In this document: piece after piece, positions 3,865-43,034 of the stretch | Layout of the letters: every line of letters starts with the position of its first letter | How positions within the stretch are numbered: position 1 is the stretch's first letter | Assembly: GCA_035525825.1 (NCBI GenBank) | Contig: DATLDP010000033.1 | Coordinates: 1 to 59,025, forward strand | DNA length: 59,025 bases | Origin: Candidatus Limnocylindria bacterium | GTDB lineage: Bacteria; Chloroflexota; Limnocylindria; Limnocylindrales; CSP1-4 | Direction of reading: 5' to 3' | Notes under the pieces: generated by a model | Told to the model about the DNA's origin: nothing | Databases searched by the model: none | Seen by the model: only the letters and a program-made list of their open reading frames with translations | Position numbers and translations under genes: made by a program

Positions 3865-4021
3865 GCCGTCATGGTGGCACGGCGTGCGCATGCGCCCCAC
3901 GATCGTGCTCGCGCTATGATGGCCCTCGGTCGGCCGAGGTTTGGTCGGCCGTTCCCGTGCCCGCCCGGTGCGCCATCACCCCGCTGCCGGGCACCGGTCC
4001 CGCCGACGCACTCGAGGAGCC

Positions 4022-5128
4022 ATGTCGACCAGTCCGAGGAAGCCCCCCGCCCCCGGAGCGATCGTCGCCGGTGGTGCCGTGCTCCTCCTGATCGCCATCG
4101 TCGGGATCGTGCTCCTGAGCCCTGCCGGCTCGGCGCTGTATCCGCCGCCGCCCGCCACTGCCCAGGCGCGGGAGATCAGCCAGCTCTACGACATCATCTT
4201 CGCCATCGCCGTGGTGGTCTTCCTCGTCGTCGAGGGCCTGATCGTCTGGAGCATCTTCCGGTACCGCCGGCGCCCGGGCGACACGGACCTGCCGCCCCAG
4301 ACCCACGGCAACAACCTGGTCGAGGCGCTCTGGACGCTCATCCCGACCGTGCTCGTGATCTTCATGTTCGCGATCTCGTGGCAGACCCTCGATCACGTTG
4401 ACGCGGTCAGCGCGGACCCGGACGTCCACATCAACGCCCTGGCGGGCCAGTTCCAGTGGCAGTTCCAGTACCTCGACAAGGACGGCAACGTCCTCGCGAC
4501 CCAGCGCCGAGCGGTCGGCGACGGCGGCGGCATGGCCGTGCCGGTCGCCAAGTCGGTCTACGTGACGCTCGAGAGCCGGGACGTCATCCACGCCTGGTAC
4601 GTCCCGCGGTTCCTCTTCAAGCGCGACGTCGTCCCGGGCCAGCAGAACCACTTCGAGTTCAAGGTGGACGAGGCCGAGGCCGGCCAGACGTTCCACGGCC
4701 AGTGCGCGGAGCTCTGCGGTACCGGCCATCGGGCGATGCTCTTCGACGTCGTGGCCATGGCCCCGGCGGACTACGACGCCTGGCTGGCGAAGCTGGTCGA
4801 GGCGGCCAATGCGACGCCGCCTCCGGCGCCGTCCGGCGCAGCCGTGATCGACCTGGCGGCGCAGGCCATCGCCTACGACAAGAAGACGCTCGATGCCCCG
4901 GCGGACGCACCGTTCGTCATCGCCTTCAAGAACGGCGACCCCGAGACCATCACCCACGACGTCGACATCAAGGGTGCCGACGGCGCCGTGATCGCCAACC
5001 AGGAGCCCATCGCGGGCGGCACCACCGGCCAATACCAGTACCAGCCGCTCGCGGCCGGCACGTACCAGTTCTTCTGCTCGATCCATCCCGGCGTGGCCGC
5101 GATGGAAGGCACCCTGACGGTGAAGTGA
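4022..5128 (+). CDS. ctaC: Cytochrome c oxidase subunit II with C-terminal type-1 cupredoxin domain
   Basis: Two TM helices; CuA ligands DVIHAW...CAELCGTGHRAM; P/A linker; then H(DV)...CSIHPGVAAM. SD gaggag precedes ATG 4022. Confidence 0.93.
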   Translation: MSTSPRKPPAPGAIVAGGAVLLLIAIVGIVLLSPAGSALYPPPPATAQAREISQLYDIIFAIAVVVFLVVEGLIVWSIFRYRRRPGDTDLPPQTHGNNLVEALWTLIPTVLVIFMFAISWQTLDHVDAVSADPDVHINALAGQFQWQFQYLDKDGNVLATQRRAVGDGGGMAVPVAKSVYVTLESRDVIHAWYVPRFLFKRDVVPGQQNHFEFKVDEAEAGQTFHGQCAELCGTGHRAMLFDVVAMAPADYDAWLAKLVEAANATPPPAPSGAAVIDLAAQAIAYDKKTLDAPADAPFVIAFKNGDPETITHDVDIKGADGAVIANQEPIAGGTTGQYQYQPLAAGTYQFFCSIHPGVAAMEGTLTVK

Positions 5129-5138
5129 GGAGGCAGCG

Positions 5139-6854
5139 ATGGCCACGCACGCCCTGAGCCCGGCTGCCGTCCCCGCCTACCGCGGCGGCATCTACGAGTG
5201 GCTGACCACGACCGATCACAAGAAGATCGGGATCATGTACGTGATCAACTCGTTCCTGTTCTTCCTGGTCGGCGGCATGTTCGCGCTGCTCGTCCGGACG
5301 GAGCTGGCGCAGCCCGGGATCCAGTTCTTCACCAACGAGCACGTCTACAACGAGTCGTTCTCGATCCATGCGACCGTGATGATCTTCCTGTTCATCATCC
5401 CGATGCTCGCGGGCCTCGGGAACTACGCGGTCCCGCTGATGATCGGCGCGCCGGACATGGCGTTCCCGCGGATCAATGCCCTGTCGTTCTGGATGTTGCC
5501 GCTCGGCGGGATCCTGCTGCTGATGGGCTTCCTGGTCCCAGGCGGCGCGGCCGCGGCCGGCTGGACGAGCTATCCCCCACTGTCCGAGCGAGGCGCGCTG
5601 TCGTCGCCAGGTGCGGGCCAGGACCTCTGGATCGTGGCACTGATCCTGATCGGCACGAGCTCGATTCTCGGCGGCATCAACTTCCTCGTGACGATCTTCA
5701 AGATGCGCGCGCCCGGGATGACCCTGTTCCGGATGCCGATCATGGTCTGGACCATTCTCGTGACCAGCGTGCTCGTCGTCATGGCGACGCCGGTCATCAC
5801 GAGCGCCCTGGTTATGCTCTTCATCGACCGGAACTACGGCGGCTCGTTCTTCAACCCGGAGACCGGCGGCACGGCCGTGCTCTACCAGAACGTGTTCTGG
5901 TTCTACTCGCATCCCGCCGTGTACGTCATGGTCCTGCCCGCGATGGGCGTGATCAGCGAGGTCCTGCCGGTCTTCAGCCGGAAGCCGCTGTTCGGCTACA
6001 AGGCGTTCATCTTCGCGACCGCCGGCATCGGCGCCCTCGGGTTCTCTGTGTGGGCCCACCACATGTTCACGACGGGCGCGGTGTTCCTGCCGTTCTTCGC
6101 GCTGATGACGTTCTTCATCGCCGTCCCGACCGGCGTGAAGATGTTCAACTGGGTCTTCACGATGTTCCGGGGCCAGCTGACATTCTCGACCCCGCTCATC
6201 TTCGCGATCGGCTTCCTGACGATGTTCCTGATCGGCGGCATCAACGGCGCCTTCAGCGCAGCCGTCCCGGTCGACTTCGCCCTCCATGACACCTACTGGG
6301 TCGTCGCCCACCTCCACTACGTCCTCTTCGGCGGCTCCGTGTTCGGCGTCTTCGCCGGGCTCTACTACTGGTTCCCGAAGATGACCGGCCGGATGCTCGA
6401 TGAAGGGCTCGGCAAGGTCCACTTCGCCCTGATGTTCATCGGCTTCAACCTGACGTTCTTCCCGATGCACATGCTCGGCATCAAGGGCATGCCCCGGCGG
6501 ATCGCGGACTACGCCTCCACCGCGGGCTGGAACGACTGGAACCTCCTGGCAACCGTCGGCGGCTTCCTGATCGGCATCTCGATGCTGCCGTTCATCTGGA
6601 ACGTCTTCGTCTCGCTGCGGAACGGCAAGGTCGCCGGCGACGATCCATGGGAGGGCAACACCCTCGAGTGGGCGACCTCCTCGCCGCCGCCGCCGTACAA
6701 CTTCGATCGCCTGCCGGAGATCCGGTCGGAGCGGCCGCTGTTCGATGCCCGCCACGGGCTCGTCGCCCATGACACCAACGCTCCGCGCGAGGTGGAGGAC
6801 GGCCAGAAGGCCATCGGGGCAGGCCCGGGCGAAGGTCGCGAGGGCCAGGCGTGA
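5139..6854 (+). CDS. ctaD: Heme-copper oxidase subunit I, A2 type
   Basis: TTTDHKKIG, HATVMIF, YSHPAVY, WAHHMF and VVAHLHY ligand motifs; PDMAFPRIN D-channel segment; TGVK K-channel lysine. Confidence 0.97.
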   Translation: MATHALSPAAVPAYRGGIYEWLTTTDHKKIGIMYVINSFLFFLVGGMFALLVRTELAQPGIQFFTNEHVYNESFSIHATVMIFLFIIPMLAGLGNYAVPLMIGAPDMAFPRINALSFWMLPLGGILLLMGFLVPGGAAAAGWTSYPPLSERGALSSPGAGQDLWIVALILIGTSSILGGINFLVTIFKMRAPGMTLFRMPIMVWTILVTSVLVVMATPVITSALVMLFIDRNYGGSFFNPETGGTAVLYQNVFWFYSHPAVYVMVLPAMGVISEVLPVFSRKPLFGYKAFIFATAGIGALGFSVWAHHMFTTGAVFLPFFALMTFFIAVPTGVKMFNWVFTMFRGQLTFSTPLIFAIGFLTMFLIGGINGAFSAAVPVDFALHDTYWVVAHLHYVLFGGSVFGVFAGLYYWFPKMTGRMLDEGLGKVHFALMFIGFNLTFFPMHMLGIKGMPRRIADYASTAGWNDWNLLATVGGFLIGISMLPFIWNVFVSLRNGKVAGDDPWEGNTLEWATSSPPPPYNFDRLPEIRSERPLFDARHGLVAHDTNAPREVEDGQKAIGAGPGEGREGQA

Positions 6855-7486
6855 CCGCTGAAGCCCCGCCCATGACCGGCGCCGTTTCCCACGGGGATCC
6901 GCACGCCGCCGAAAGCGGCCACGCGCAGCGAGGCATCTCCAACCCGATCCTCGGGATGGCGCTGTTCATCACCTCCGAGGTGATGTTCTTCTCGGGCCTG
7001 TTCGCCGCCTACTTCGCGACTCGCGCGGCGAACCAGCCGTGGCCGCCGGAGGCCTTCGGGGAGCTCCTGGAGCCCCTCTCTCTGATCCTGGTCGCGACGA
7101 TCATCCTGATCCTGAGCTCGTTCACCTGCCAGTTCGCCGTCTGGTCCATCCGGAAGGGCGACCGGGCCGGGTTCATCCGGAACATCTCGATCACCTTCGT
7201 GCTCGGGATCATCTTCCTGGTCATGCAGATGTACGACTACAGCATCCTCTTCGGCGAGGGGATGACGCTCGGCTCCGGGCCGTTCGGGACGACCTACTAC
7301 ACGCTCACCGGCTTCCACGGCGCCCACGTCTTCGGTGGCGTCCTGATGCTCGGGGTGGTGCTGTACCGCGGCCTCGCCGGCCAGTTCTCGGCGAAGCACC
7401 ATGACGCGGTCGAGGCGGTCAGCCTCTACTGGCACTTCGTCGACGTCGTCTGGATTCTCCTCTTCTCGATCCTGTACCTGGTCTGA
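6851..7486 (+). CDS. ctaE: Cytochrome c oxidase subunit III (short form)
   Basis: LFITSEVMFFSGLF, YYTLTGFHGAHV, SLYWHFVDVVW; GTGA overlap with ctaD. Confidence 0.95.
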   Translation: MTAEAPPMTGAVSHGDPHAAESGHAQRGISNPILGMALFITSEVMFFSGLFAAYFATRAANQPWPPEAFGELLEPLSLILVATIILILSSFTCQFAVWSIRKGDRAGFIRNISITFVLGIIFLVMQMYDYSILFGEGMTLGSGPFGTTYYTLTGFHGAHVFGGVLMLGVVLYRGLAGQFSAKHHDAVEAVSLYWHFVDVVWILLFSILYLV

Positions 7487-7499
7487 GGGGGAACGAGAC

Positions 7500-7685
7500 A
7501 TGCCCGGTCGACATCTCGCCGCCATCATCATCGCGATCAGCTGCGTGGTCCTCGGCGTCCTCTACGGCGCCCTCGCGCCCGTCTTCGGCTACCGCATCGA
7601 GTGGGCCGGCGTCACGATGCTGATCGCGCTCGGTGCCGCCCTCGGCCTCATGGTGTTCGTCCTCGACACCGGGCACCGCGAGTAG
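7500..7685 (+). CDS. Small two-TM membrane protein resembling the N-terminal half of actinobacterial oxidase subunit IV (CtaF)
   Basis: 61 aa with two hydrophobic helices; IEWAGVTMLIALG recalls the CtaF EWAGT motif; in-operon position. Confidence 0.6.
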   Translation: MPGRHLAAIIIAISCVVLGVLYGALAPVFGYRIEWAGVTMLIALGAALGLMVFVLDTGHRE

Positions 7686-7698
7686 CGGGCTCCTGCCG

Positions 7699-8787
7699 AT
7701 GGAGCCGACCGCCAGTTCCAGGACCCTCCTCGACACGCTGCTCGAGGCGGCCGCGGTCGTCATCACCCCGAACTGGAACGAGCTGCTGCTCCTGATCCCG
7801 ATCGGGCTGCTCCTCCTCTTCCTCGCCTGGTTCATGCTGACGCTTCGCAGGTTCGCGACCGTCGGCCCCCGACGCCGGGAGCCGGCGCGGATCCAGCCGC
7901 TGACGCCCGCCAACGTCCACATGCCGGGCGGCTCGCTCGCCCCGATCCTGGTCGCGGTGGGCGCGGCATCGCTGTTCGCCGGCCTGATCATCGGTGGCGT
8001 CGCGCTGCTGCTGGGTGTCATCGCGCTCGTGATCACGATGCTCGCCTGGTTCCGCGAGGCGATGCAGGACTACGACCACCTGGAGCCCGCGAACCGGCTG
8101 CCGGCCGTGGTCCACGAGGGCCCGCCGCCCGGCGTCCACATGCCCGGGCCATCGATCCGCCCGCTCCTGGGGGCGCTCGGCTCCGCGGCGCTGCTGGGCG
8201 GCCTCGTGATCGGTGGCTGGGTGCTGATCCTCGCGGTCATCTTCCTCGTCTACACCCTCATCGGCTGGCTGGTCGACGCGACCGCCGAGTACCGCAAGGT
8301 CGAGGAGGCGGACAAGACCGGCCATCTCGAGAACATCCCGGACCGGCGGCTGCCGATGCGCACGCTCCAGGTCTTCGCCGTCCTGTTCGCCCTGCTGACG
8401 ATGGCCCAGCTCGGGATCTTCCCGCCGACCGCGCCGGCCACGGCCGGTGGCCCCGGCGGCTCCCCTGCCCCATCCGGCGCCGGCGGCCCCGTGGCGCCTC
8501 CGGGCTCGCTCCAGCTGGTCGCGTCGGGCATCTCCTACGACCAGAAGTCCCTCACGGCGCCCGCGGACCAGCCGATCACGTTCTTCCTGGTGAACAAGGA
8601 TCCGGCCTCCACTCCGCACGACGTGGAGCTCCACAACGCGGACGGCACGCCGATCAAGCCGGTCCCCGAGACGCCCGGCGGAGAGTCGATGGCCTACCAG
8701 TACGACCCGCTGCCGGCCGGCGACTACACCTACATCTGCTCCATCCACCCAATCCCCGCGATGACGGGGACGCTCACGGTCCAGTAG
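7699..8787 (+). CDS. Multi-TM putative oxidase accessory subunit with duplicated HMPxxS hairpin modules and C-terminal type-1 cupredoxin
   Basis: VHMPGGSLAP (7918) and VHMPGPSIRP (8137) are each followed by two TM helices. C-terminal PHDV...ICSIHPIPAM. Confidence 0.8.
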   Translation: MEPTASSRTLLDTLLEAAAVVITPNWNELLLLIPIGLLLLFLAWFMLTLRRFATVGPRRREPARIQPLTPANVHMPGGSLAPILVAVGAASLFAGLIIGGVALLLGVIALVITMLAWFREAMQDYDHLEPANRLPAVVHEGPPPGVHMPGPSIRPLLGALGSAALLGGLVIGGWVLILAVIFLVYTLIGWLVDATAEYRKVEEADKTGHLENIPDRRLPMRTLQVFAVLFALLTMAQLGIFPPTAPATAGGPGGSPAPSGAGGPVAPPGSLQLVASGISYDQKSLTAPADQPITFFLVNKDPASTPHDVELHNADGTPIKPVPETPGGESMAYQYDPLPAGDYTYICSIHPIPAMTGTLTVQ

Positions 8788-36024: not shown

Positions 36025-36453
36025 GTGAACGACCAGCGCATCGTCCAGGGCGGACGGTCGAAGGCCTACCGGCCGATCCCGGAGGCCGAGCGGCGCGCGG
36101 CAATCGAGGATGGCCTCGCGGCGTACCACCGAGGCGACTTCTTCCTGGCCCACGAGCTGCTCGAGCCGGCGTGGATGGGGACCGCGGACCTGCCCGAGCG
36201 GGAGCTGCTGCAGGGCCTGATCAAGCTCGCGGCTGCGTTCGTCCATGACGCCCGCTCGAACCCGCTCGGCATCCGAAAGAATCTCGCGGGAGCCCGGGAC
36301 CGGCTGGCGGAAGGGCTCTATGCGGGCTCGCGCGTCGGGATCGATGTCGTGGCGCTGATCGCCGCCGTCGATGCACGCCTGGGTGGTGCGATCGAGGTTG
36401 GCGACCCGCCGATCGAGATCCCGCCACAGGATCCGACCGCGGGCGGAGGCTAG
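36025..36453 (+). CDS. DUF309 family protein
   Basis: FFLAHELLEPAW and LQGLIKLAAAFVH. Confidence 0.85.
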   Translation: MNDQRIVQGGRSKAYRPIPEAERRAAIEDGLAAYHRGDFFLAHELLEPAWMGTADLPERELLQGLIKLAAAFVHDARSNPLGIRKNLAGARDRLAEGLYAGSRVGIDVVALIAAVDARLGGAIEVGDPPIEIPPQDPTAGGG

Positions 36454-37979
36454 GCCTCCTTCGGGGCCCGAGCTTCGCGTTCGGCCCTGCGGTTCCGCCA
36501 CCAGCCGGCCATCTTCTCGCGGTTGTTGAAGACCCAGCCGACCGCAACCAGGATCACGAAGTTGCCCGTGCCCACGCCCGCCGCGGCGAGGTAGCCGAGC
36601 TGCTGCCCGATCTCTCCGCCGATCTGGAGGCCCGGAACCACCAGGCCCACCAGCCCGAGCTGGAAGAACGGCGCCTGCGGGGCGAGGTTCGCGCGGTAGC
36701 CGCCGGTGGCGGGGGCGCCGTCCGCCTCGCCGCCGAGGACGTAAACGTTGACGCCGCTCACGACCGTGGCGCTGTCCACCACGCCCGCCGGCAGGTCGGT
36801 CTGATCCAGGTGACGCCAGCCATCGGCCAGGTCCCCGTTGGCATTCGGGAGGGCCCAGTACACCTCGCGCTTCGAGGCGATCCCGTCCGCGCCGCCCGCG
36901 ATGTAGAGCGCACCGTTGGCCACCCAGCCAGCGGCGCCACCGCGCGCACCGGGGAGGTTCGCGGCGTCATTAACGGCCCACTGGACGACCCCTTCGATGC
37001 CGCCGCTCGCCGCGGGGCTCGGGGCCGCTGCCGAAGCGCCCGGCGCCGCGCTGCCGGCAGCCGCCGCCGCGACGCCGTAGCTGGCGCGCTGGACGGTGGC
37101 GGTCGGTCCGTTGGCGTCGTTGCCGCCGAAGACCCACAGGTAGGTGCCCTCGAGGGCCATCGTCGCGTCGGCCACGGCGTGGAGCAATGGCGGCTGCTCC
37201 TTGAACTCGCCGAGGTTGCCGGAGGTGTCGATCGTGGACTTCCAGACCTTGGTGCTCGGCGCGCCGTTGGCGTCTCGCCCGCCCGCGATCACGATGCCGT
37301 CGGTCACGGCAACCGCGGAGGCGCCGGCCCGGGGCTCGGGAAGCTTGAGATCCGTCGCGTCCTCGCCGGTGCCGATCTTGGCCGGCTCCCAGGCCTTGAG
37401 CGCGCTGGTGTCGGGGTCCAGCCCGATCTTCCAGACTGTGTCCGTGGCGCCGCCGGGACCGGCCCCGCCGACCAGGTAGGCCGTTCCGGAGAGGATCGCG
37501 AGCGCGGCGTCGGCGCGGGCCTCCGGCAGGGCCGGACCCTCCGCCCAGGCGCCGAAGACGCCGTTCGCGACCTGGCTGACGTAGGTCGTCGCGACCGGCG
37601 CGTTGCCGTCGCTGCCGCCGATGTACAGGAGGTTCGTGCCGAGCTGGGCAGCCGCACCGTCGCTTCGCGCCGCGGGGAGCGCCACGTCGGCGGCCGTGCC
37701 CTGCCACGGGACCAGCGCGCCGGCGGGAACGGGGCACGGCATGTTCGTGCCGTTCTCCGGCGGGCAGAGGTTGACCGGCGACCAGCCGAGGATGCCGAGG
37801 TCGATCGTCCGTGAGACGACGAAGTAGTAGGCGCGATCCGGCACGTAGCCGAGGGCCATGATGATGACGAGGAGCCAGAACCCGGCCTTCGTCGTCGCCC
37901 AGCCCCAGCCCTCGGGATCGAACAGCCCGAACACGGGACGGCTCCGAACCGGTCGACCTGCGGGCAGCGCCTTGGCCAT
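36450..37979 (-). CDS. Membrane protein with six Kelch-like repeats between N- and C-terminal TM segments
   Basis: Repeats LYIGG, YLVGG, VIAGG, WVFGG, YIAGG and YVLGG, most preceded by LP.AR/LP.G; 2 nt downstream of the cytochrome c gene. Confidence 0.82.
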   Translation of the reverse strand: MAKALPAGRPVRSRPVFGLFDPEGWGWATTKAGFWLLVIIMALGYVPDRAYYFVVSRTIDLGILGWSPVNLCPPENGTNMPCPVPAGALVPWQGTAADVALPAARSDGAAAQLGTNLLYIGGSDGNAPVATTYVSQVANGVFGAWAEGPALPEARADAALAILSGTAYLVGGAGPGGATDTVWKIGLDPDTSALKAWEPAKIGTGEDATDLKLPEPRAGASAVAVTDGIVIAGGRDANGAPSTKVWKSTIDTSGNLGEFKEQPPLLHAVADATMALEGTYLWVFGGNDANGPTATVQRASYGVAAAAAGSAAPGASAAAPSPAASGGIEGVVQWAVNDAANLPGARGGAAGWVANGALYIAGGADGIASKREVYWALPNANGDLADGWRHLDQTDLPAGVVDSATVVSGVNVYVLGGEADGAPATGGYRANLAPQAPFFQLGLVGLVVPGLQIGGEIGQQLGYLAAAGVGTGNFVILVAVGWVFNNREKMAGWWRNRRAEREARAPKEA

Positions 37980-37981
37980 CG

Positions 37982-39046
37982 CTATTCGACCGTCAGGGTG
38001 CCGGTCATCGCCGGGATCGGGTGGACCCGGCAGATGAAGGTGTAGGTACCGGCCGCGAGCGGAGCGTAGGGATAGACGATCTGCTGGCCGCCGTCGATCG
38101 GCGCGGGATCCGAGATCGAGGTGCCGTCCGCGGCCTTGATCTGGACGTTGTGGGGCAGACCGGGCCCGTCCTGATTGTCGAGCGCGATGCCGAACGGCTT
38201 GTCAGCCGGGACGGTGAGCTCCTTCTTGTCGAACGCGACGCCGACCGCGACAAGGTCGACGACGGTGTCCTCCGGGCCGAGCGTCGCCACCGGTGCCGGT
38301 GTGCCGCCACCGCTCCCGGACCAGCACTCGGGCACGTCGGTGGCGTCGGCGGCGGGCTTGAACTCGTCATCGCGCCAACCCTTGAACGTCTCGACCTTGC
38401 CGTCTTCGCCGATGACCGGTTCGTTGAGCTCCGGGTCGCGCCGGGTGAACTCCTGGGTGCTCGGAGCACGGATGAAGGCGATCAGGTCCTCGATCTGGAT
38501 GTAGTTGAGCGGGCCGCCGTTCGTGTCGGCCCAGACCGGCATGAGGCTCTTGGGATTGCCGCAGACGTACCGCCCGCCGACCGTCAGGACGTTGTGGATG
38601 TACTGCTCGGACAGGTGCGAGAAGAGCTTCGCCTGGTCGTTGAGGACCGGGCCGATCCCGCCCTCGCCCTTGGCGCCGTGGCACCGCGCGCAGTTCGCCT
38701 CGTAGAGGTTGTAGCCGCGCTCGATGGACGAGACCTGCTGGGCGTTCTCCTGCGCCTCGAGCCGCGGCGTCGTCTCGATGATCGGGACCCCGAGCTCGTA
38801 GAAGTAGTAGATGATCACGAACAGGGCCACGATCGCGACGCCGAGGAACGCCACCCACCGGGCGTCACCCGTCTGGCGGACGATCTTGGCGGCGCGCTCC
38901 GACGTCAGCCCCGCGATCGCCCGGGTCTGGCGGGGCGCGGTGAAGCGCTCGGCGGACCGGGTGGGGGCGGTTTCGCTGGGCTCGCGGCGGGCGGGCAGGC
39001 TCCGCTCCGGCTGGCCCTCCCGCCGGTCCCTGGGCGAGTCGGTCAT
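37982..39046 (-). CDS. Membrane-anchored monoheme cytochrome c fused to a type-1 cupredoxin
   Basis: One TM; CARCH heme motif; SLMP likely axial Met; C-terminal PHNV...ICRVHPIPAM. Confidence 0.88.
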   Translation of the reverse strand: MTDSPRDRREGQPERSLPARREPSETAPTRSAERFTAPRQTRAIAGLTSERAAKIVRQTGDARWVAFLGVAIVALFVIIYYFYELGVPIIETTPRLEAQENAQQVSSIERGYNLYEANCARCHGAKGEGGIGPVLNDQAKLFSHLSEQYIHNVLTVGGRYVCGNPKSLMPVWADTNGGPLNYIQIEDLIAFIRAPSTQEFTRRDPELNEPVIGEDGKVETFKGWRDDEFKPAADATDVPECWSGSGGGTPAPVATLGPEDTVVDLVAVGVAFDKKELTVPADKPFGIALDNQDGPGLPHNVQIKAADGTSISDPAPIDGGQQIVYPYAPLAAGTYTFICRVHPIPAMTGTLTVE

Positions 39047-39717
39047 ATGCAGCCGGTTGGGGTCTTCGGCGGGATGATCCCCGGCTGGCCGACGGCGACC
39101 GGGAGCGGGCCAAGGGTGATCTTCGAGGTGTCCAGCGTCAGGATGCCCTCGGCGTCGACGGTGATTGCGAAGCGATCCATGCCGCGCGGCGCCGGGCCGT
39201 ACTGCGCGCCCTGGGCCTTGATCCCGAGGCGGTCATAGCGCGAGCCGTGGCACGGGCACTCGAACCAGTAGTTCTTGAGGCACGGGTTGGGCTTGCAGCC
39301 GAGGTGGGGGCAGCGCTGGTAGAGCGCGCGGACGTTGAGGGCGGTGCCGTCACCGGCTCGATCCTCGCCGGGCACGAACTCCTGGCGCGACGGGTCCACC
39401 AGCATGATGTAGGCCCGCGCGGCCTGGTAGTAGACCGGGAACCCGGTCGCGAACGGCAGCGACGTGTTCTGGGCCTTGATGTCGTCGATGGTCCCGATCT
39501 CGATCGTGCCGCCGAAGCCGCCGCGTGAGTTCGGCCACAGGAAGCCGATCGTGCCCGCCGCGACCTCCGTGAGCCAGAGGAGGGTCGCGCCGCCGATGGA
39601 GCGGCGCAGCAGCGTCCGCCGCGAGATCCCCTGGACGGGATCCTGGCGGAGCGAGCGAAGCGCCTGGGGCGTGAGGGCCTGGGGCTTCTCGGCGGGCTGG
39701 ACGTGGTAGTTGCTCAT
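39043..39717 (-). CDS. qcrA: Rieske 2Fe-2S subunit of a Rieske/cytochrome b complex
   Basis: SRRTLL twin-arginine-like segment plus TM; CPHLGC and CPCHGSRY boxes. Confidence 0.93.
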   Translation of the reverse strand: MSNYHVQPAEKPQALTPQALRSLRQDPVQGISRRTLLRRSIGGATLLWLTEVAAGTIGFLWPNSRGGFGGTIEIGTIDDIKAQNTSLPFATGFPVYYQAARAYIMLVDPSRQEFVPGEDRAGDGTALNVRALYQRCPHLGCKPNPCLKNYWFECPCHGSRYDRLGIKAQGAQYGPAPRGMDRFAITVDAEGILTLDTSKITLGPLPVAVGQPGIIPPKTPTGCI

Positions 39718-39725
39718 CGGTCAGT

Positions 39726-40352
39726 TCACAGTGCGAAGTGGAGGCCGTTGGTGAAGTTGTCGAAGAACGGCAGGTACGGCGTCACGAGGGAGTAGCCGGG
39801 CCCGCGGAAGAACACCCCGACGAAGGTGACCATCAGGCCGAGCGCGCACAGCAGCGTGAACAGCACGACCGCAGTCTTGCGATCCGAGGGCTTCTTCGCC
39901 TCGATGTTGGCCCGGTCGATGTACGGCAGCACGATCATGCCCAAGAGGATGTACAGGAACGGCACCAGCACGCCGGAGACGACCGGGTGGAAGTACGCGA
40001 GCAGCTCCTGGAGCCCGAGGAGGTACCACGGCGCCTTCGCGACCGGCGGTGTGACGTTGCCGTTCGCCAGGTCCTCGAGCGGGGCGTTGATGAAGAGGCC
40101 CATCAGGAGCAGGAAGATGCTCATGACCGTCGCGGCGAAGAACTCGATCGAGAGCAGGTGCGGCCAGGTCATGACCGTGTCGTCCGGTTCCTTCTGGACT
40201 CGAACGACCGCGTCCTGCTTGACCATCGCCAGCAGGCGGTAGGGCCGCGCGGACATCGGCACGCGCTGCTTGTCGATCTCCGTCCGACGGGTCGGATCGA
40301 CGGGCAGGACCTCGCGCGCGACGGGCTTCGTGTCGGTCTTCTGATCGCTCAT
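39726..40352 (-). CDS. Cytochrome b subunit IV-like protein (PetD / QcrC N-terminal type)
   Basis: TWPHLL, NAPLEDLAN, KAPWY (PEWY-equivalent), LPYID; three TM helices. Confidence 0.88.
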   Translation of the reverse strand: MSDQKTDTKPVAREVLPVDPTRRTEIDKQRVPMSARPYRLLAMVKQDAVVRVQKEPDDTVMTWPHLLSIEFFAATVMSIFLLLMGLFINAPLEDLANGNVTPPVAKAPWYLLGLQELLAYFHPVVSGVLVPFLYILLGMIVLPYIDRANIEAKKPSDRKTAVVLFTLLCALGLMVTFVGVFFRGPGYSLVTPYLPFFDNFTNGLHFAL

Positions 40353-40470
40353 GCAGCAGTACCCGACGGGCCGCTAGGACGGCCAGATGCAAGGCGCCGG
40401 CGAGCACCGGAACGAGCGGACGCCGACGTCCGTGAGCGAGAAGCGCAGGCGGCAACGCGGCAGATGGCTG

Positions 40471-41199
40471 TCATAGCGGACCGGAGATTCCGCCGTCTTT
40501 CCTGATGCGCCAGAAGTGGACGGCCAGGAAGATGGCGGCGACGAGCGGCAGGACCATGATGTGGAGCACGTAGAACCGGAGCAGCGTGTTCTGCCCGACC
40601 TCCAGTCCACCGAAGATCAGCGACTGGATGGGGGTGTTGATCACCGGCGTGTAGCTGGCCATGTTCAGGCCGATCGTGATGGCCCAGTAGCTGATCTGGT
40701 CCCACGGCAGCAGGTAGCCGGTGAAGCTCAGGGCGATCGTCATCAGCAGCAGGATCACGCCGACGACCCAGTTGAACTCCCGCGGCGGCTTGTAGGCCCC
40801 GTGGTAGAAGACCCGCATCATGTGCAGGAAGACGAAGAAGACCATCAGGTGGGCGCCCCACCGGTGGACGTTCCGGGTCAGCAGGCCGAACGCGACGCGT
40901 GACTGGATGTTCAGGATGTCCGTGTACGCGCTCCCGGTCGACGGGATGTAGAAGAACATGAGGTAGACGCCCGTCACGGTCAGGACGAGGAACAGGAAGA
41001 ACGACAGCCCGCCGAGGCAGAACGTGTACGCGAACTTGACCGCGTGCTGCCGGACCCGGACCGGGTGGAGGTGCAGGAAGACGTTGTTCATCACGGCGTA
41101 CGCGCGCGACCGCTCGTCCGTCGGGTAGGGGTTGCGGAAGAGCGACCGCCAAGCGGGGCTCCGGCGGATGGCCTGGTCCACCCGCTCGAGGAAGCTCAA
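40471..41199 (-). CDS. qcrB: Cytochrome b6-type subunit (4 TM) with heme ci cysteine
   Basis: FCLGG, HRWGAHLM...LHM, GYLLPWDQ, LH...VHF. TTG start with SD aggagg overlaps the upstream TGA. Confidence 0.93.
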   Translation of the reverse strand: MSFLERVDQAIRRSPAWRSLFRNPYPTDERSRAYAVMNNVFLHLHPVRVRQHAVKFAYTFCLGGLSFFLFLVLTVTGVYLMFFYIPSTGSAYTDILNIQSRVAFGLLTRNVHRWGAHLMVFFVFLHMMRVFYHGAYKPPREFNWVVGVILLLMTIALSFTGYLLPWDQISYWAITIGLNMASYTPVINTPIQSLIFGGLEVGQNTLLRFYVLHIMVLPLVAAIFLAVHFWRIRKDGGISGPL

Positions 41200-43034
41200 C
41201 GACCCATTCCTCCTGCGACGCCGGGCGTGCCGGCGAGCTGAGCGTCTCGGTACGACTCCTTGTAGAGCCGGCCATCGGTCGAGATCTCTTGCAGCTCGAA
41301 CCGCTCCATCGTAATGGCGTCGAACGGGCAACGCTTGACGCACAGCGCGCAGCGGATGCAGCGCTCCTCGTCGAGGATCATCGCGGCGCCGTCCTGCCAG
41401 CCGTAGGCCTCGTCCAGCTCGGTCAGGAGGCCCTCGGACTTGAGCTGGTTGATGTCGACCATGTGGATGACGCCCTCGGGGCAGACATCCGCGCACGCGC
41501 CGCAGAGGACGCAGCGGAACGGGTCGAACCAGATGTTGAAGTTGCACATGAGGCAGCGGGTTGACTCGGCGACGGCGGAGGTCGCGTCGTAGCCCTGCTC
41601 GACCTGGGTCGTGAAGTTGACGTCCGGGTCGGTGGACGGCATTCGCTCGGTCAGGGCCGTCATCGGGATGTGCTGGCGCGGCAGGACGTCGTAGAACTCG
41701 GGCATCTCGAACGCCCAGGTGCTGGTCATCTTGACGTTCGCCGCGACGGTCACGTCCGTGCGTCCGGCCAAGTAGCGGTCGATCGCGTACGCGGCCTTCT
41801 TGCCGTGGCCCGCTGCCTCGATGAGGGTCGTGGGGCCGGTCACGAAATCGCCGCAGGCGAAGACGCCCCGGACGTTCGTGGCGTAGGTCGCGGGATCCAC
41901 CTTCACGCGGCCGCGATTGACCTCGAAGTCCGCCTCGACCGGGAGGAACGTCAGGTCCGCGGCCTGCGAGACGGCCGGGATGACCGTGTCGGCCTTGATC
42001 ACGAACTCGGACCCGGGGATCGGCACCGGCGAGCGCCGGCCCGAGGCGTCCGGCTCGCCGAGCTTGTTCCGGATGAACTTGACGCCGGTCACGTGGCCGT
42101 TCTCGCCGAGCACCTCCACCGGGCTCGCGAGGAACTCCATGCGGACGCCCTCCCGCTCCGTCTCGCCGAGCTCCTCCTCGTCGACGACCAGCTCGGACCG
42201 CGTCCGGCGGTAGACGATCGCGACGTTCTCGGCGCCGTGCCGGAGCGAGGTTCGCGAGCAGTCCATCGCGGTGTAGCCACCGCCGATGACCACCACGTCC
42301 CTGCCGACCTCGATCGGCTCGCCGAGGTTGGCCTTCTTCATGAAGTCCACGCCGTACTGGACGCCCTCGAGGTCGCCACCCGGCACGTCGAGGGCCACGG
42401 CGTTCATCGCGCCGGCCGTGATCGCAACCGCGTCATGGTCGCTCTGGAGCTCGTCGAAGGTGATGTCGACGCCGATGTTGGTGTTGTAGTGGAAGGTCAC
42501 GCCGAGGCGCTCGACCAGCTTGATGTCCATCTCGATCGCCTCGCGCGGGAGGCGGAACGCCGGCACGCCGATGAGCATCGTCCCGCCGCCGTACGGCAGG
42601 CTGTCGTAGACGTCCACCCCATAGCCCTTCATCGCCAGCTCGCGGGCGACCGAGATGCCGGACGGACCTGCGCCGACGACCGCGACCTTCTCGGCCCGGG
42701 CCTCGATGTGGGGCATGACGTCAGGGATGCCCGAAGCCTCGTGCCACTCGACGAGGAAGCGCTTCATCGCCCGGATCGCAAGGGGCCGGTCGATGTCGCC
42801 GCGGCGGCAGGCGCGCTCGCACGGGGCGGAGCAGACATAGGAGCACATCGCGGCCACGGGGTTGGGCTCGCGGGAGAGGATGTAGCCCTCCTCGAAGCGG
42901 CCTTCCGCGGCAAGGTTCAGGTAGCCCCGGCAGTTCGTCCCGACCGGGCAGGCCTCCTGGCACTCGATGTTGCACTGGAGCCAGGAAGCATCGACCGGCT
43001 GGACGAGGAATTCCTGGCGGACGTCGAGGGTCAA
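41196..43034 (-). CDS. GltD/NfnB/DsrL-like NAD(P)H-dependent flavo-iron-sulfur oxidoreductase with C-terminal 2x[4Fe-4S] ferredoxin
   Basis: CQEACP, CSYVCSAPCERAC, GAGPSG, GGGYTAMD, YRRT, GDFVTGP, RCLMC and two CxxCxxCxxxCP motifs. Start uncertain (TTG 43034 after gaggt). Confidence 0.9.
   Translation of the reverse strand: MTLDVRQEFLVQPVDASWLQCNIECQEACPVGTNCRGYLNLAAEGRFEEGYILSREPNPVAAMCSYVCSAPCERACRRGDIDRPLAIRAMKRFLVEWHEASGIPDVMPHIEARAEKVAVVGAGPSGISVARELAMKGYGVDVYDSLPYGGGTMLIGVPAFRLPREAIEMDIKLVERLGVTFHYNTNIGVDITFDELQSDHDAVAITAGAMNAVALDVPGGDLEGVQYGVDFMKKANLGEPIEVGRDVVVIGGGYTAMDCSRTSLRHGAENVAIVYRRTRSELVVDEEELGETEREGVRMEFLASPVEVLGENGHVTGVKFIRNKLGEPDASGRRSPVPIPGSEFVIKADTVIPAVSQAADLTFLPVEADFEVNRGRVKVDPATYATNVRGVFACGDFVTGPTTLIEAAGHGKKAAYAIDRYLAGRTDVTVAANVKMTSTWAFEMPEFYDVLPRQHIPMTALTERMPSTDPDVNFTTQVEQGYDATSAVAESTRCLMCNFNIWFDPFRCVLCGACADVCPEGVIHMVDINQLKSEGLLTELDEAYGWQDGAAMILDEERCIRCALCVKRCPFDAITMERFELQEISTDGRLYKESYRDAQLAGTPGVAGGMGR

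Follow-up and report, generated by a model that had tools for sequence, protein, structure and literature searches.

The closest described relatives of the gene cluster reported here are the Rieske/cytochrome b complexes of anaerobic ammonium-oxidising (anammox) bacteria, such as those of Kuenenia (Kuste4569-4574 and Kustd1480-1485). In many cases, and in several phyla, cytochromes b of subfamily G co-occur with NAD(P)-binding, Cys-rich oxidoreductases (Dibrova et al., PMC5600118), and de Almeida et al. (2016), cited in PMC5600118, showed that such anammox complexes are expressed. In the AlphaFold3 models of Hauser et al. (2025, PMC12954380), a path runs from haem cn, or from a haem predicted at the dimer interface, through four Fe-S clusters to FAD. 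Complexes of the APWY type have been suggested to run in reverse (Kao and Hunte 2014, PMC4122944). The DNA analysed here (the window) is the complete stretch of 59,025 nt of contig DATLDP010000033.1 from a Candidatus Limnocylindria bacterium of the phylum Chloroflexota (assembly GCA_035525825.1), with a G+C content of 70%; comparison with related contigs likewise places it in the class Limnocylindria. It carries six minus-strand genes, arranged head to tail and packed as one operon, for an NADP(H) flavo-Fe-S protein (the flavoprotein), a split cytochrome b with its subunit IV, a Rieske protein, a cytochrome c-cupredoxin fusion and a Kelch protein. This kind of system was described before by Kartal (2013), Dibrova, de Almeida and Hauser; what is new is an aerobic member that is the sole complex III of its lineage. 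No paper on flavoprotein-cytochrome b pairing in Limnocylindria was found in a literature search.

The locus resembles the two anammox clusters in its split cytochrome b with a CxGG motif, in having the Rieske gene within the cluster, and in the adjacent, co-oriented gene for a GltD-type NAD(P)/FAD protein with four Fe-S sites. Its Rieske protein is also nearest to two solved anammox Rieske proteins. There are clear differences: the p-side proteins are a monohaem cytochrome c-cupredoxin and a Kelch protein, whereas anammox clusters encode hexa- or octahaem cytochromes; the flavoprotein gene comes first in the Limnocylindria order; subunit IV is short (208 amino acids, aa), while the anammox models show five helices; and the organism is aerobic, with this complex as its only complex III, co-inherited with an aa3 oxidase. 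The short CxGG cytochrome b and the APWY motif are shared with subfamily G (Dibrova et al. 2013/2017) and the APWY clade (Kao and Hunte 2014). Kao and Hunte suggested reverse operation for APWY complexes, but the Limnocylindria complex is the sole route from quinol to aa3 oxidase and tracks COX1 exactly, which points to forward operation.

The reading preferred here, held at about even confidence, is that the products of the six genes form a single b6-type Rieske/cytochrome b quinol oxidase with the flavoprotein docked on the cytoplasmic (n) side; NADP+ reduction is the favoured direction of flow, with less confidence.

Gene arrangement of the operon

The features of the operon, and the oxidase operon of the same window, are as follows.

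43034..41196, minus strand: NfnB/GltD-type NADP(H) flavo-Fe-S protein, 612 aa, TTG start (Pfam and NCBIfam)
41214..41209, minus strand: strong AGGAGG Shine-Dalgarno sequence for cytochrome b, near the 3' end of the flavoprotein coding sequence and 9 nt before the TTG
41199..41196, minus strand: TTGA stop/start overlap of the flavoprotein and cytochrome b genes (sequence reading)
41199..40471, minus strand: cytochrome b6-type subunit, 242 aa (Pfam Cytochrome_B, 164 bits)
40353-40470: spacer of 118 nt from the cytochrome b stop to the subunit IV ATG
40352..39726, minus strand: subunit IV, 208 aa (Pfam Cytochrom_B_C)
39717..39043, minus strand: Rieske [2Fe-2S] protein, 224 aa (Pfam Rieske)
39046..37982, minus strand: cytochrome c-cupredoxin fusion (Pfam Cytochrom_C and Cupredoxin_1)
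36450..37979, minus strand: Kelch-repeat membrane protein, final gene of the operon (Pfam Kelch)
3920..8787, plus strand: aa3-type haem-copper oxidase operon, with CoxII, CoxI, CoxIII and a CoxIV-like subunit (Pfam and sequences)

The TTG start of cytochrome b (41199..41197) overlaps the flavoprotein TGA (41198..41196), as the initial annotation had read it, and this overlap is conserved in relatives. The Rieske and cytochrome c-cupredoxin genes are joined in a similar way, by an ATGA overlap. The initial annotation (39043-43034) had also placed subunit IV and Rieske genes downstream of cytochrome b, which agrees with the Pfam assignments and coordinates; its interval left the cytochrome c-cupredoxin and Kelch genes outside. 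Its coordinates and motifs are correct. A longer, 639 aa open reading frame of the flavoprotein, from 43115, was rejected: relatives measure 611-612 aa, and so the TTG at 43034 is the correct start, in accord with the gene caller (612 aa). A 358 aa open reading frame for cytochrome b was likewise rejected, since relatives and the gene caller support 242 aa. In relatives the gap from cytochrome b to subunit IV has one of two sizes, about 0 nt or about 120-160 nt, which makes it a variable insert in an otherwise tight operon. A scan for promoters and terminators gave nothing exceeding chance.

The flavoprotein

The first protein of the operon begins with a domain for two clusters, continues with Rossmann folds for FAD and NADPH, and ends in a 2x[4Fe-4S] ferredoxin domain followed by a conserved tail; it has no transmembrane segment. 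Pfam assigns Fer4_20 (PF14691, 59 bits), Pyr_redox_2 (PF07992, 98 bits) and C-terminal Fer4 domains. Cysteine numbering follows the 639 aa open reading frame, and 27 is subtracted for the 612 aa gene. Eight N-terminal cysteines (C48, C52, C56, C62, C91, C95, C99 and C103) and two CxxCxxCxxxCP motifs (RCVLCGACADVCP and RCIRCALCVKRCP) make up four cluster-binding motifs with a total of 16 cluster cysteines; an additional CLMC pair is present. The FAD motif is VGAGPSG and the NADPH motif VIGGGYTAMD...VYRR, with Y275, R276 and R277 at least 90% conserved. All of the motifs listed in the initial annotation (FAD and pyridine-nucleotide Rossmann motifs, YRR, N-terminal Fe-S cysteines and two C-terminal clusters) can be read in the sequence.

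Membership of the GltD/NfnB family, proposed at the outset, was upheld by both Pfam and fold comparison, although every score against the NCBIfam equivalogs of this family lies under its cut-off. Sequence matches in the PDB were NfnABC, StnC and NfnL. An AlphaFold2 model of the monomer (mean predicted local distance difference test score 74.9, predicted TM-score 0.71) gives a self-contained soluble fold, with high confidence for the core and moderate confidence for the ferredoxin domain. Foldseek matched this model to StnC (8oh5_C), to NfnA of NfnABC (9bov_A, 9n5u_A) and to NfnL/NfnB (5jca_L, 4ylf_B), the last two with target-normalised TM-scores of 0.81-0.82 and root-mean-square deviations of 2.2-2.4 Å; the NADP(H) modules of StnABC and NfnABC rank highest among the hits. 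NfnAB and the GltD-like modules of StnABC and NfnABC (PDB 5jca, 4ylf, 8oh5, 9bov and 9n5u) thus have the same fold, the same pair of N-terminal clusters and the same motifs for FAD and NADPH, and NfnA of NfnABC can also be aligned with the ferredoxin-like extension at the C-terminus. What sets the Limnocylindria protein apart is its partner, a membrane cytochrome b complex instead of NfnA/NfnS or a NuoEF-like pair. No gene for a GltB large subunit or an NfnA/NfnS partner was found in the operon or in syntenic loci, and there is no ferredoxin gene in the operon.

A second difference from these enzymes is the conserved C-terminal tail, which is confined to cytochrome b-linked orthologues (common to them at 57% identity) and absent from paralogues. 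AlphaFold2 leaves this tail (577-612) and a linker (427-454) disordered. Majority-residue conservation is 0.926 for tail residues 577-600 and 0.885 for the linker, compared with 0.907 for the catalytic core. The linker and tail, disordered yet conserved, are therefore candidate docking elements.

Membrane subunits and electron exit

Cytochrome b is of the short, four-helix form, with subunit IV encoded separately. Its haem-cn motif CxGG reads TFCLGG, with Cys61, Gly63 and Gly64 invariant in 26 of 26 class sequences, and an n-side motif FLHLHP is also invariant. The presence of a split cytochrome b that carries the haem-cn cysteine and is translationally coupled to the flavoprotein was therefore confirmed. 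Subunit IV has APWY as its Qo motif. The Rieske cluster motifs are CPHLGC...CPCHGSRY, including the Ser and Tyr residues, and the nearest solved structures are 9rk4_A and 9rk3_A, which are taken, judging by their molecule names, as the two anammox (Kuenenia) Rieske proteins of Hauser et al. The midpoint potentials of the Kuenenia Rieske proteins are above +300 mV (Hauser et al. 2025, PMC12954380).

Electrons probably leave the complex through the cytochrome c-cupredoxin fusion, a membrane-anchored monohaem cytochrome c with a type-1 copper cupredoxin domain. The operon encodes no multihaem cytochrome c or HAO-like partner for the p-side, where it has the fusion protein and the Kelch protein; multihaem partners are a trait of the anammox members, not of this kind of complex in general. 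Every related locus of sufficient length has the Kelch gene in the same position, at 39-78% identity. A Kelch subunit is not known in characterised bc complexes.

Cytochrome b passes the cut-off of NCBIfam NF040969 (ExtP, 296.9 bits against 290), a family named for the cytochrome b of the Geobacter selenite/tellurite reduction operon, while the ExtQ score is 56 bits against a cut-off of 150. The neighbours of ext-type operons (multihaem cytochromes, rhodanese, porin) are not found here, where the neighbours are the flavoprotein, subunit IV, Rieske, cytochrome c-cupredoxin and Kelch genes. Because of this mismatch in operon context, the ExtP name is not transferable and was rejected for this cytochrome b.

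The cyanobacterial b6f equivalogs were not reached either (b6 NF002990, 220 against 325 bits; PetC, 36 against 250), and no cytochrome f partner was found. Cyanobacterial and chloroplast b6f with FNR are nevertheless alike in their split b6 and subunit IV, in haem cn, and in an NADP(H) flavoenzyme on the n-side, which is predicted in the present case. They differ in that the FNR fold is unrelated, is without an Fe-S chain and is not encoded in the pet operon, in the score of cytochrome b under the b6 subfamily cut-off, and in the lack of cytochrome f here.

Conservation and distribution in Limnocylindria

Gene order and junctions were compared in 80 related loci, with order judged wherever the contig reaches. 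The order flavoprotein, cytochrome b, subunit IV, Rieske, cytochrome c-cupredoxin, Kelch was kept in all 80, and a 4 nt overlap (GTGA or TTGA) was found at the flavoprotein/cytochrome b junction in 78 of the 78 loci where it could be evaluated, so that the arrangement is not due to chance. The strictness of the overlap also implies 1:1 synthesis of the two proteins. Across the 80 loci the flavoprotein is 84-95% identical, equal to the conservation of cytochrome b. It ranges from 80 to 96% within the order and falls to about 57% in a second order, where it has an insert of about 45 residues.

Four loci that had been considered as samples from other phyla (L001, L032, L043 and L061) were rejected as such, since all four genomes carry Limnocylindria cytochrome b; the genome of L001 and the window are congeneric. 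At 85-94% identity, the operon occurs in public records filed as Dormibacterota, Polarisedimenticolia, Sulfomarinibacteraceae and Saccharimonadales, and these titles are mislabels.

Distribution was examined in 301 Chloroflexota genomes, 33 of which are of the class Limnocylindria. Cytochrome b with a flavoprotein orthologue directly upstream is present in 27 of the 33 class genomes, and COX1 in all 27 that have the complex. In the remaining six (two genera, 93-95% complete), cytochrome b, the flavoprotein orthologue and COX1 are jointly absent, and these genera serve as a natural control for the role of the operon. The six (G151, G169, G178, G187, G205 and G237, all of the same family) keep complex I and PntAB, and are presumably anaerobic or fermentative offshoots. 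ActD, the marker of alternative complex III, was found in none of the 33 class genomes, while NuoD of complex I and the transhydrogenase PntB were found in all of them. The genome of the window itself has one cytochrome b and one Rieske gene. The operon is the sole complex III of the lineage, inherited and lost together with the O2 reductase. A sole complex III, with ActD absent and COX1 tracking it, has to operate in the forward direction (quinol:cytochrome c reductase), with electrons passing from quinol through cytochrome c/cupredoxin to O2. An O2 reductase, which the initial annotation had attributed to this organism, is indeed encoded in the window, by the aa3-type operon at 3920-8787 on the plus strand.

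Sister complexes and more distant relatives

The 20 closest relatives of cytochrome b outside the class are 55-65% identical and come from 17 families. Subunit IV accompanies all of them, and Rieske and cytochrome c genes nearly all, but neither a flavoprotein nor any other Fe-S gene lies upstream of cytochrome b in any of the 20. The flavoprotein is an add-on to the complex.

A different arrangement was seen in a second Chloroflexota family (L137:4158-8756 and L146), where a distant GltD-like protein precedes a long, fused cytochrome b without CxGG. The GltD-like protein has lost the NADPH motif (VIGDDDSAFD, with no YRR), and the cluster also holds a degenerate Rieske-like protein and a cytochrome c. 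Judged by these sequences, flavoprotein and cytochrome b are paired here a second time, in a divergent form.

Many flavoproteins of the same architecture, at 36-44% identity, were recovered when 50%-identity representatives were searched exhaustively; the names of their clusters include Brocadiaceae, Ca. Wunengus, Scalinduaceae, Nitrospinota, Nitrospirota and Thermincola. The Brocadiaceae protein of the same architecture is 42% identical over its full length. Among eight homologue neighbourhoods, five adjoin cytochrome b, two do not and one is ambiguous. The Brocadiaceae/Planctomycetota loci (L173, L174) encode a Rieske protein, the flavoprotein, cytochrome b, subunit IV and two multihaem cytochromes, which is the Kuste4569-74 layout; the presence of NAD(P)H oxidoreductase subunits in anammox clusters, noted in the initial annotation, is thus supported by these neighbourhoods as well as by the literature. 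The Thermincola homologue adjoins cytochrome b, together with a molybdoenzyme, and three metagenome contigs have the homologue beside cytochrome b. The two loci without an adjoining cytochrome b are L175, from Nitrospinota, and L179. With adjacency in 27 of the 27 class genomes that have the complex and in five of the eight relatives outside Chloroflexota, homologues cannot be said to lie rarely beside cytochrome b.

Complex I and a putative copper relay

A GltD module also occurs in the complex I operon of the same genome, outside the window (C2:11434-16972 and C62:2-8274). The genes nuoA-B-C-D-H, a nuoI fused to a NuoE-like N-terminal part, and a NuoF-like gene are followed by a protein of about 950 aa that has the N-terminus of NuoG (Fer2_4, NADH-G_4Fe-4S_3 and Fer4_Nqo3) and an inserted GltD module with VYRR, and then by nuoJ-K-L-M. 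This NuoG-GltD protein has the StnC/NfnA architecture within a nuo operon. In most class genomes, including the genera without complex III, the distance from the GltD paralogue to nuoD is about 4.5 kb.

Type-1 copper cupredoxin domains (H...C..H....M, ending in AMTGTLTV or AMEGTLTV) occur as three paralogues, encoded at 3920-5128, 7624-8787 and 37982-39046. They are fused to CoxII (after CuA), to the CoxIV-like subunit and to the cytochrome c of complex III, respectively, which suggests a tethered copper relay from complex III to aa3 oxidase that would replace a soluble carrier.

Electron flow and alternative explanations

In the docked complex, the flavoprotein would be a subunit on the cytoplasmic side, with four Fe-S clusters connecting its NADP(H)/FAD site to haems bn and cn, the low-potential end of cytochrome b. 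By analogy with the AlphaFold3 models of the anammox complexes, docking and wiring to haem cn are most likely. In the favoured direction, quinol oxidised at the Qo site would give up one electron towards rising potential, first to the Rieske protein and then through cytochrome c and cupredoxin to O2, while the second, strongly reducing electron could pass by haem cn and the Fe-S chain to NADP+, at least when the quinone pool is reduced. The complex would thus deliver electrons by its cytochrome c-cupredoxin subunit to the aa3 oxidase, its likely terminal acceptor. The link between NADP(H) and haem may well be reversible.

Quinol-driven NADP+ reduction, with bifurcation at Qo pulled by O2, is proposed only tentatively and with distinctly less confidence than the docked complex as a whole. 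We infer the direction itself: NADP+ reduction is favoured because the Rieske protein resembles the high-potential anammox type and because the complex must run forward. The further step, that the sole complex III of the lineage lacks a classical Q cycle and combines Qo bifurcation and O2 pull through a copper-protein relay with transfer of the second electron to NADP+, would be more doubtful again and is considered unlikely.

Several observations weigh against the preferred reading. Sister complexes with the same core operate without an NADP(H) arm, and they share CxGG, APWY and FLHLHP; three of their Rieske proteins were read, and these carry CPCHGSRY too. On the n-side of cytochrome b and subunit IV, only P24 and F83 of the former and V104 of the latter set the flavoprotein-linked group apart, with no docking signature; with so few differences between linked and sister complexes, nothing in the membrane core points clearly to adjustment for a docked subunit or for unusual energetics. 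Since PntAB and complex I are present in all 33 class genomes, an extra source of NADPH is not obviously needed. The thermodynamic case for NADP+ reduction depends on the quinone type, for which gene searches gave no clear pathway: among 10 class genomes, including that of the window (e.g., C122:8696-9442), MqnA/D of the futalosine pathway were found in none, and MenD and MenA scored over cut-off in two. Most of the respiring genomes of the 10 therefore show no recognisable menaquinone pathway. Lastly, a single clade of cytochrome b-linked flavoproteins was not supported by a quick maximum-likelihood tree, in which the anammox and Limnocylindria flavoproteins are not sister groups. Homology to the anammox subunit holds at the family level and is not strict orthology, and the flavoprotein-cytochrome b pairing is either ancient, with frequent losses, or of more than one origin.

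The alternative that survives best, one of the two directions that the initial annotation had considered, keeps the docked subunit and reverses the flow, from NADPH through FAD and the four Fe-S clusters to haem cn at the Qn site, where quinone would be reduced. This would make the complex an NADPH:cytochrome c (cupredoxin) reductase that contains its own quinone loop and has an FNR/ferredoxin-like input, as proposed for b6f cyclic flow. Haem cn is conserved and has been proposed as the acceptor from stromal donors, and FNR co-purifies with b6f (PMC5600118). GltD-type modules oxidise NADPH in NfnAB, and the GltD module in the complex I gene set of the lineage, beside NuoF, suggests NADPH as a respiratory donor. 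Reversed flow is nonetheless thought rather unlikely, as the NADPH-to-quinone drop would not be conserved (the argument of Hauser et al., PMC12954380), every class genome has complex I and PntAB, and the flavoprotein-less sister complexes function without such an input.

Less probable still is that the flavoprotein is co-transcribed without being a stable subunit, and serves the complex as a soluble NADPH:ferredoxin-type oxidoreductase in cofactor or haem-cn maturation, repair or regulation. Its soluble, self-contained fold without a transmembrane segment would suit this role, as would the near absence of linked-group-specific residues in the membrane subunits and the close family members without cytochrome b in L175 (Nitrospinota) and L179. 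However, the anammox homologues are reported within such complexes (PMC5600118), with all subunits comigrating (PMC12954380). An unattached enzyme also fits poorly with the 1:1 synthesis implied by the 4 nt overlap in 78 of 78 loci, with the loss of the flavoprotein together with cytochrome b and COX1, with a conservation equal to that of cytochrome b (84-95%), and with the conserved disordered tail. Bifurcation at the FAD of the flavoprotein, with NADPH reducing the low-potential chain of cytochrome b and a second partner such as ferredoxin, is very improbable: the nearest two-subunit relatives, NfnL and NfnB, do hold a bifurcating FAD, but the operon has neither an NfnA/NfnS-like partner nor a ferredoxin gene, the four clusters read as one linear chain, and in StnC and in NfnA of NfnABC, the nearest relatives of known structure, the GltD module is a terminal, non-bifurcating NADP(H) site.

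Significance

Whether Rieske/cytochrome b complexes can divert the low-potential electron to NAD(P)+ is a question that dates from the anammox genomes; gene clusters, complexome data, Rieske potentials and AlphaFold models have been its basis so far. The system of Limnocylindria is simpler, with one complex III per genome, six genes, a single c-type haem subunit and O2 as the sink. Natural controls are provided by the flavoprotein-less sister complexes and by the two genera in which complex and oxidase were lost jointly. With this simplicity and these controls, the question becomes more tractable by heterologous expression, potentiometry of the Rieske and Fe-S centres, structure prediction and cryo-electron microscopy. 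A sole complex III that tracks COX1 argues against APWY complexes generally running in reverse, and current NCBIfam naming (ExtP, selenite/tellurite reduction) would mislabel the cytochrome b of Limnocylindria.

Limnocylindria are a class abundant in soil and freshwater. If their sole complex III does combine Qo bifurcation and O2 pull with transfer of the second electron to NADP+ in place of a classical Q cycle, NADPH synthesis at the membrane, powered by respiration, would be mainstream among aerobes and no longer a peculiarity of anammox bacteria, and, with a GltD module also in the NuoG-like subunit, the entire respiratory chain of these bacteria would be poised around NADP(H).

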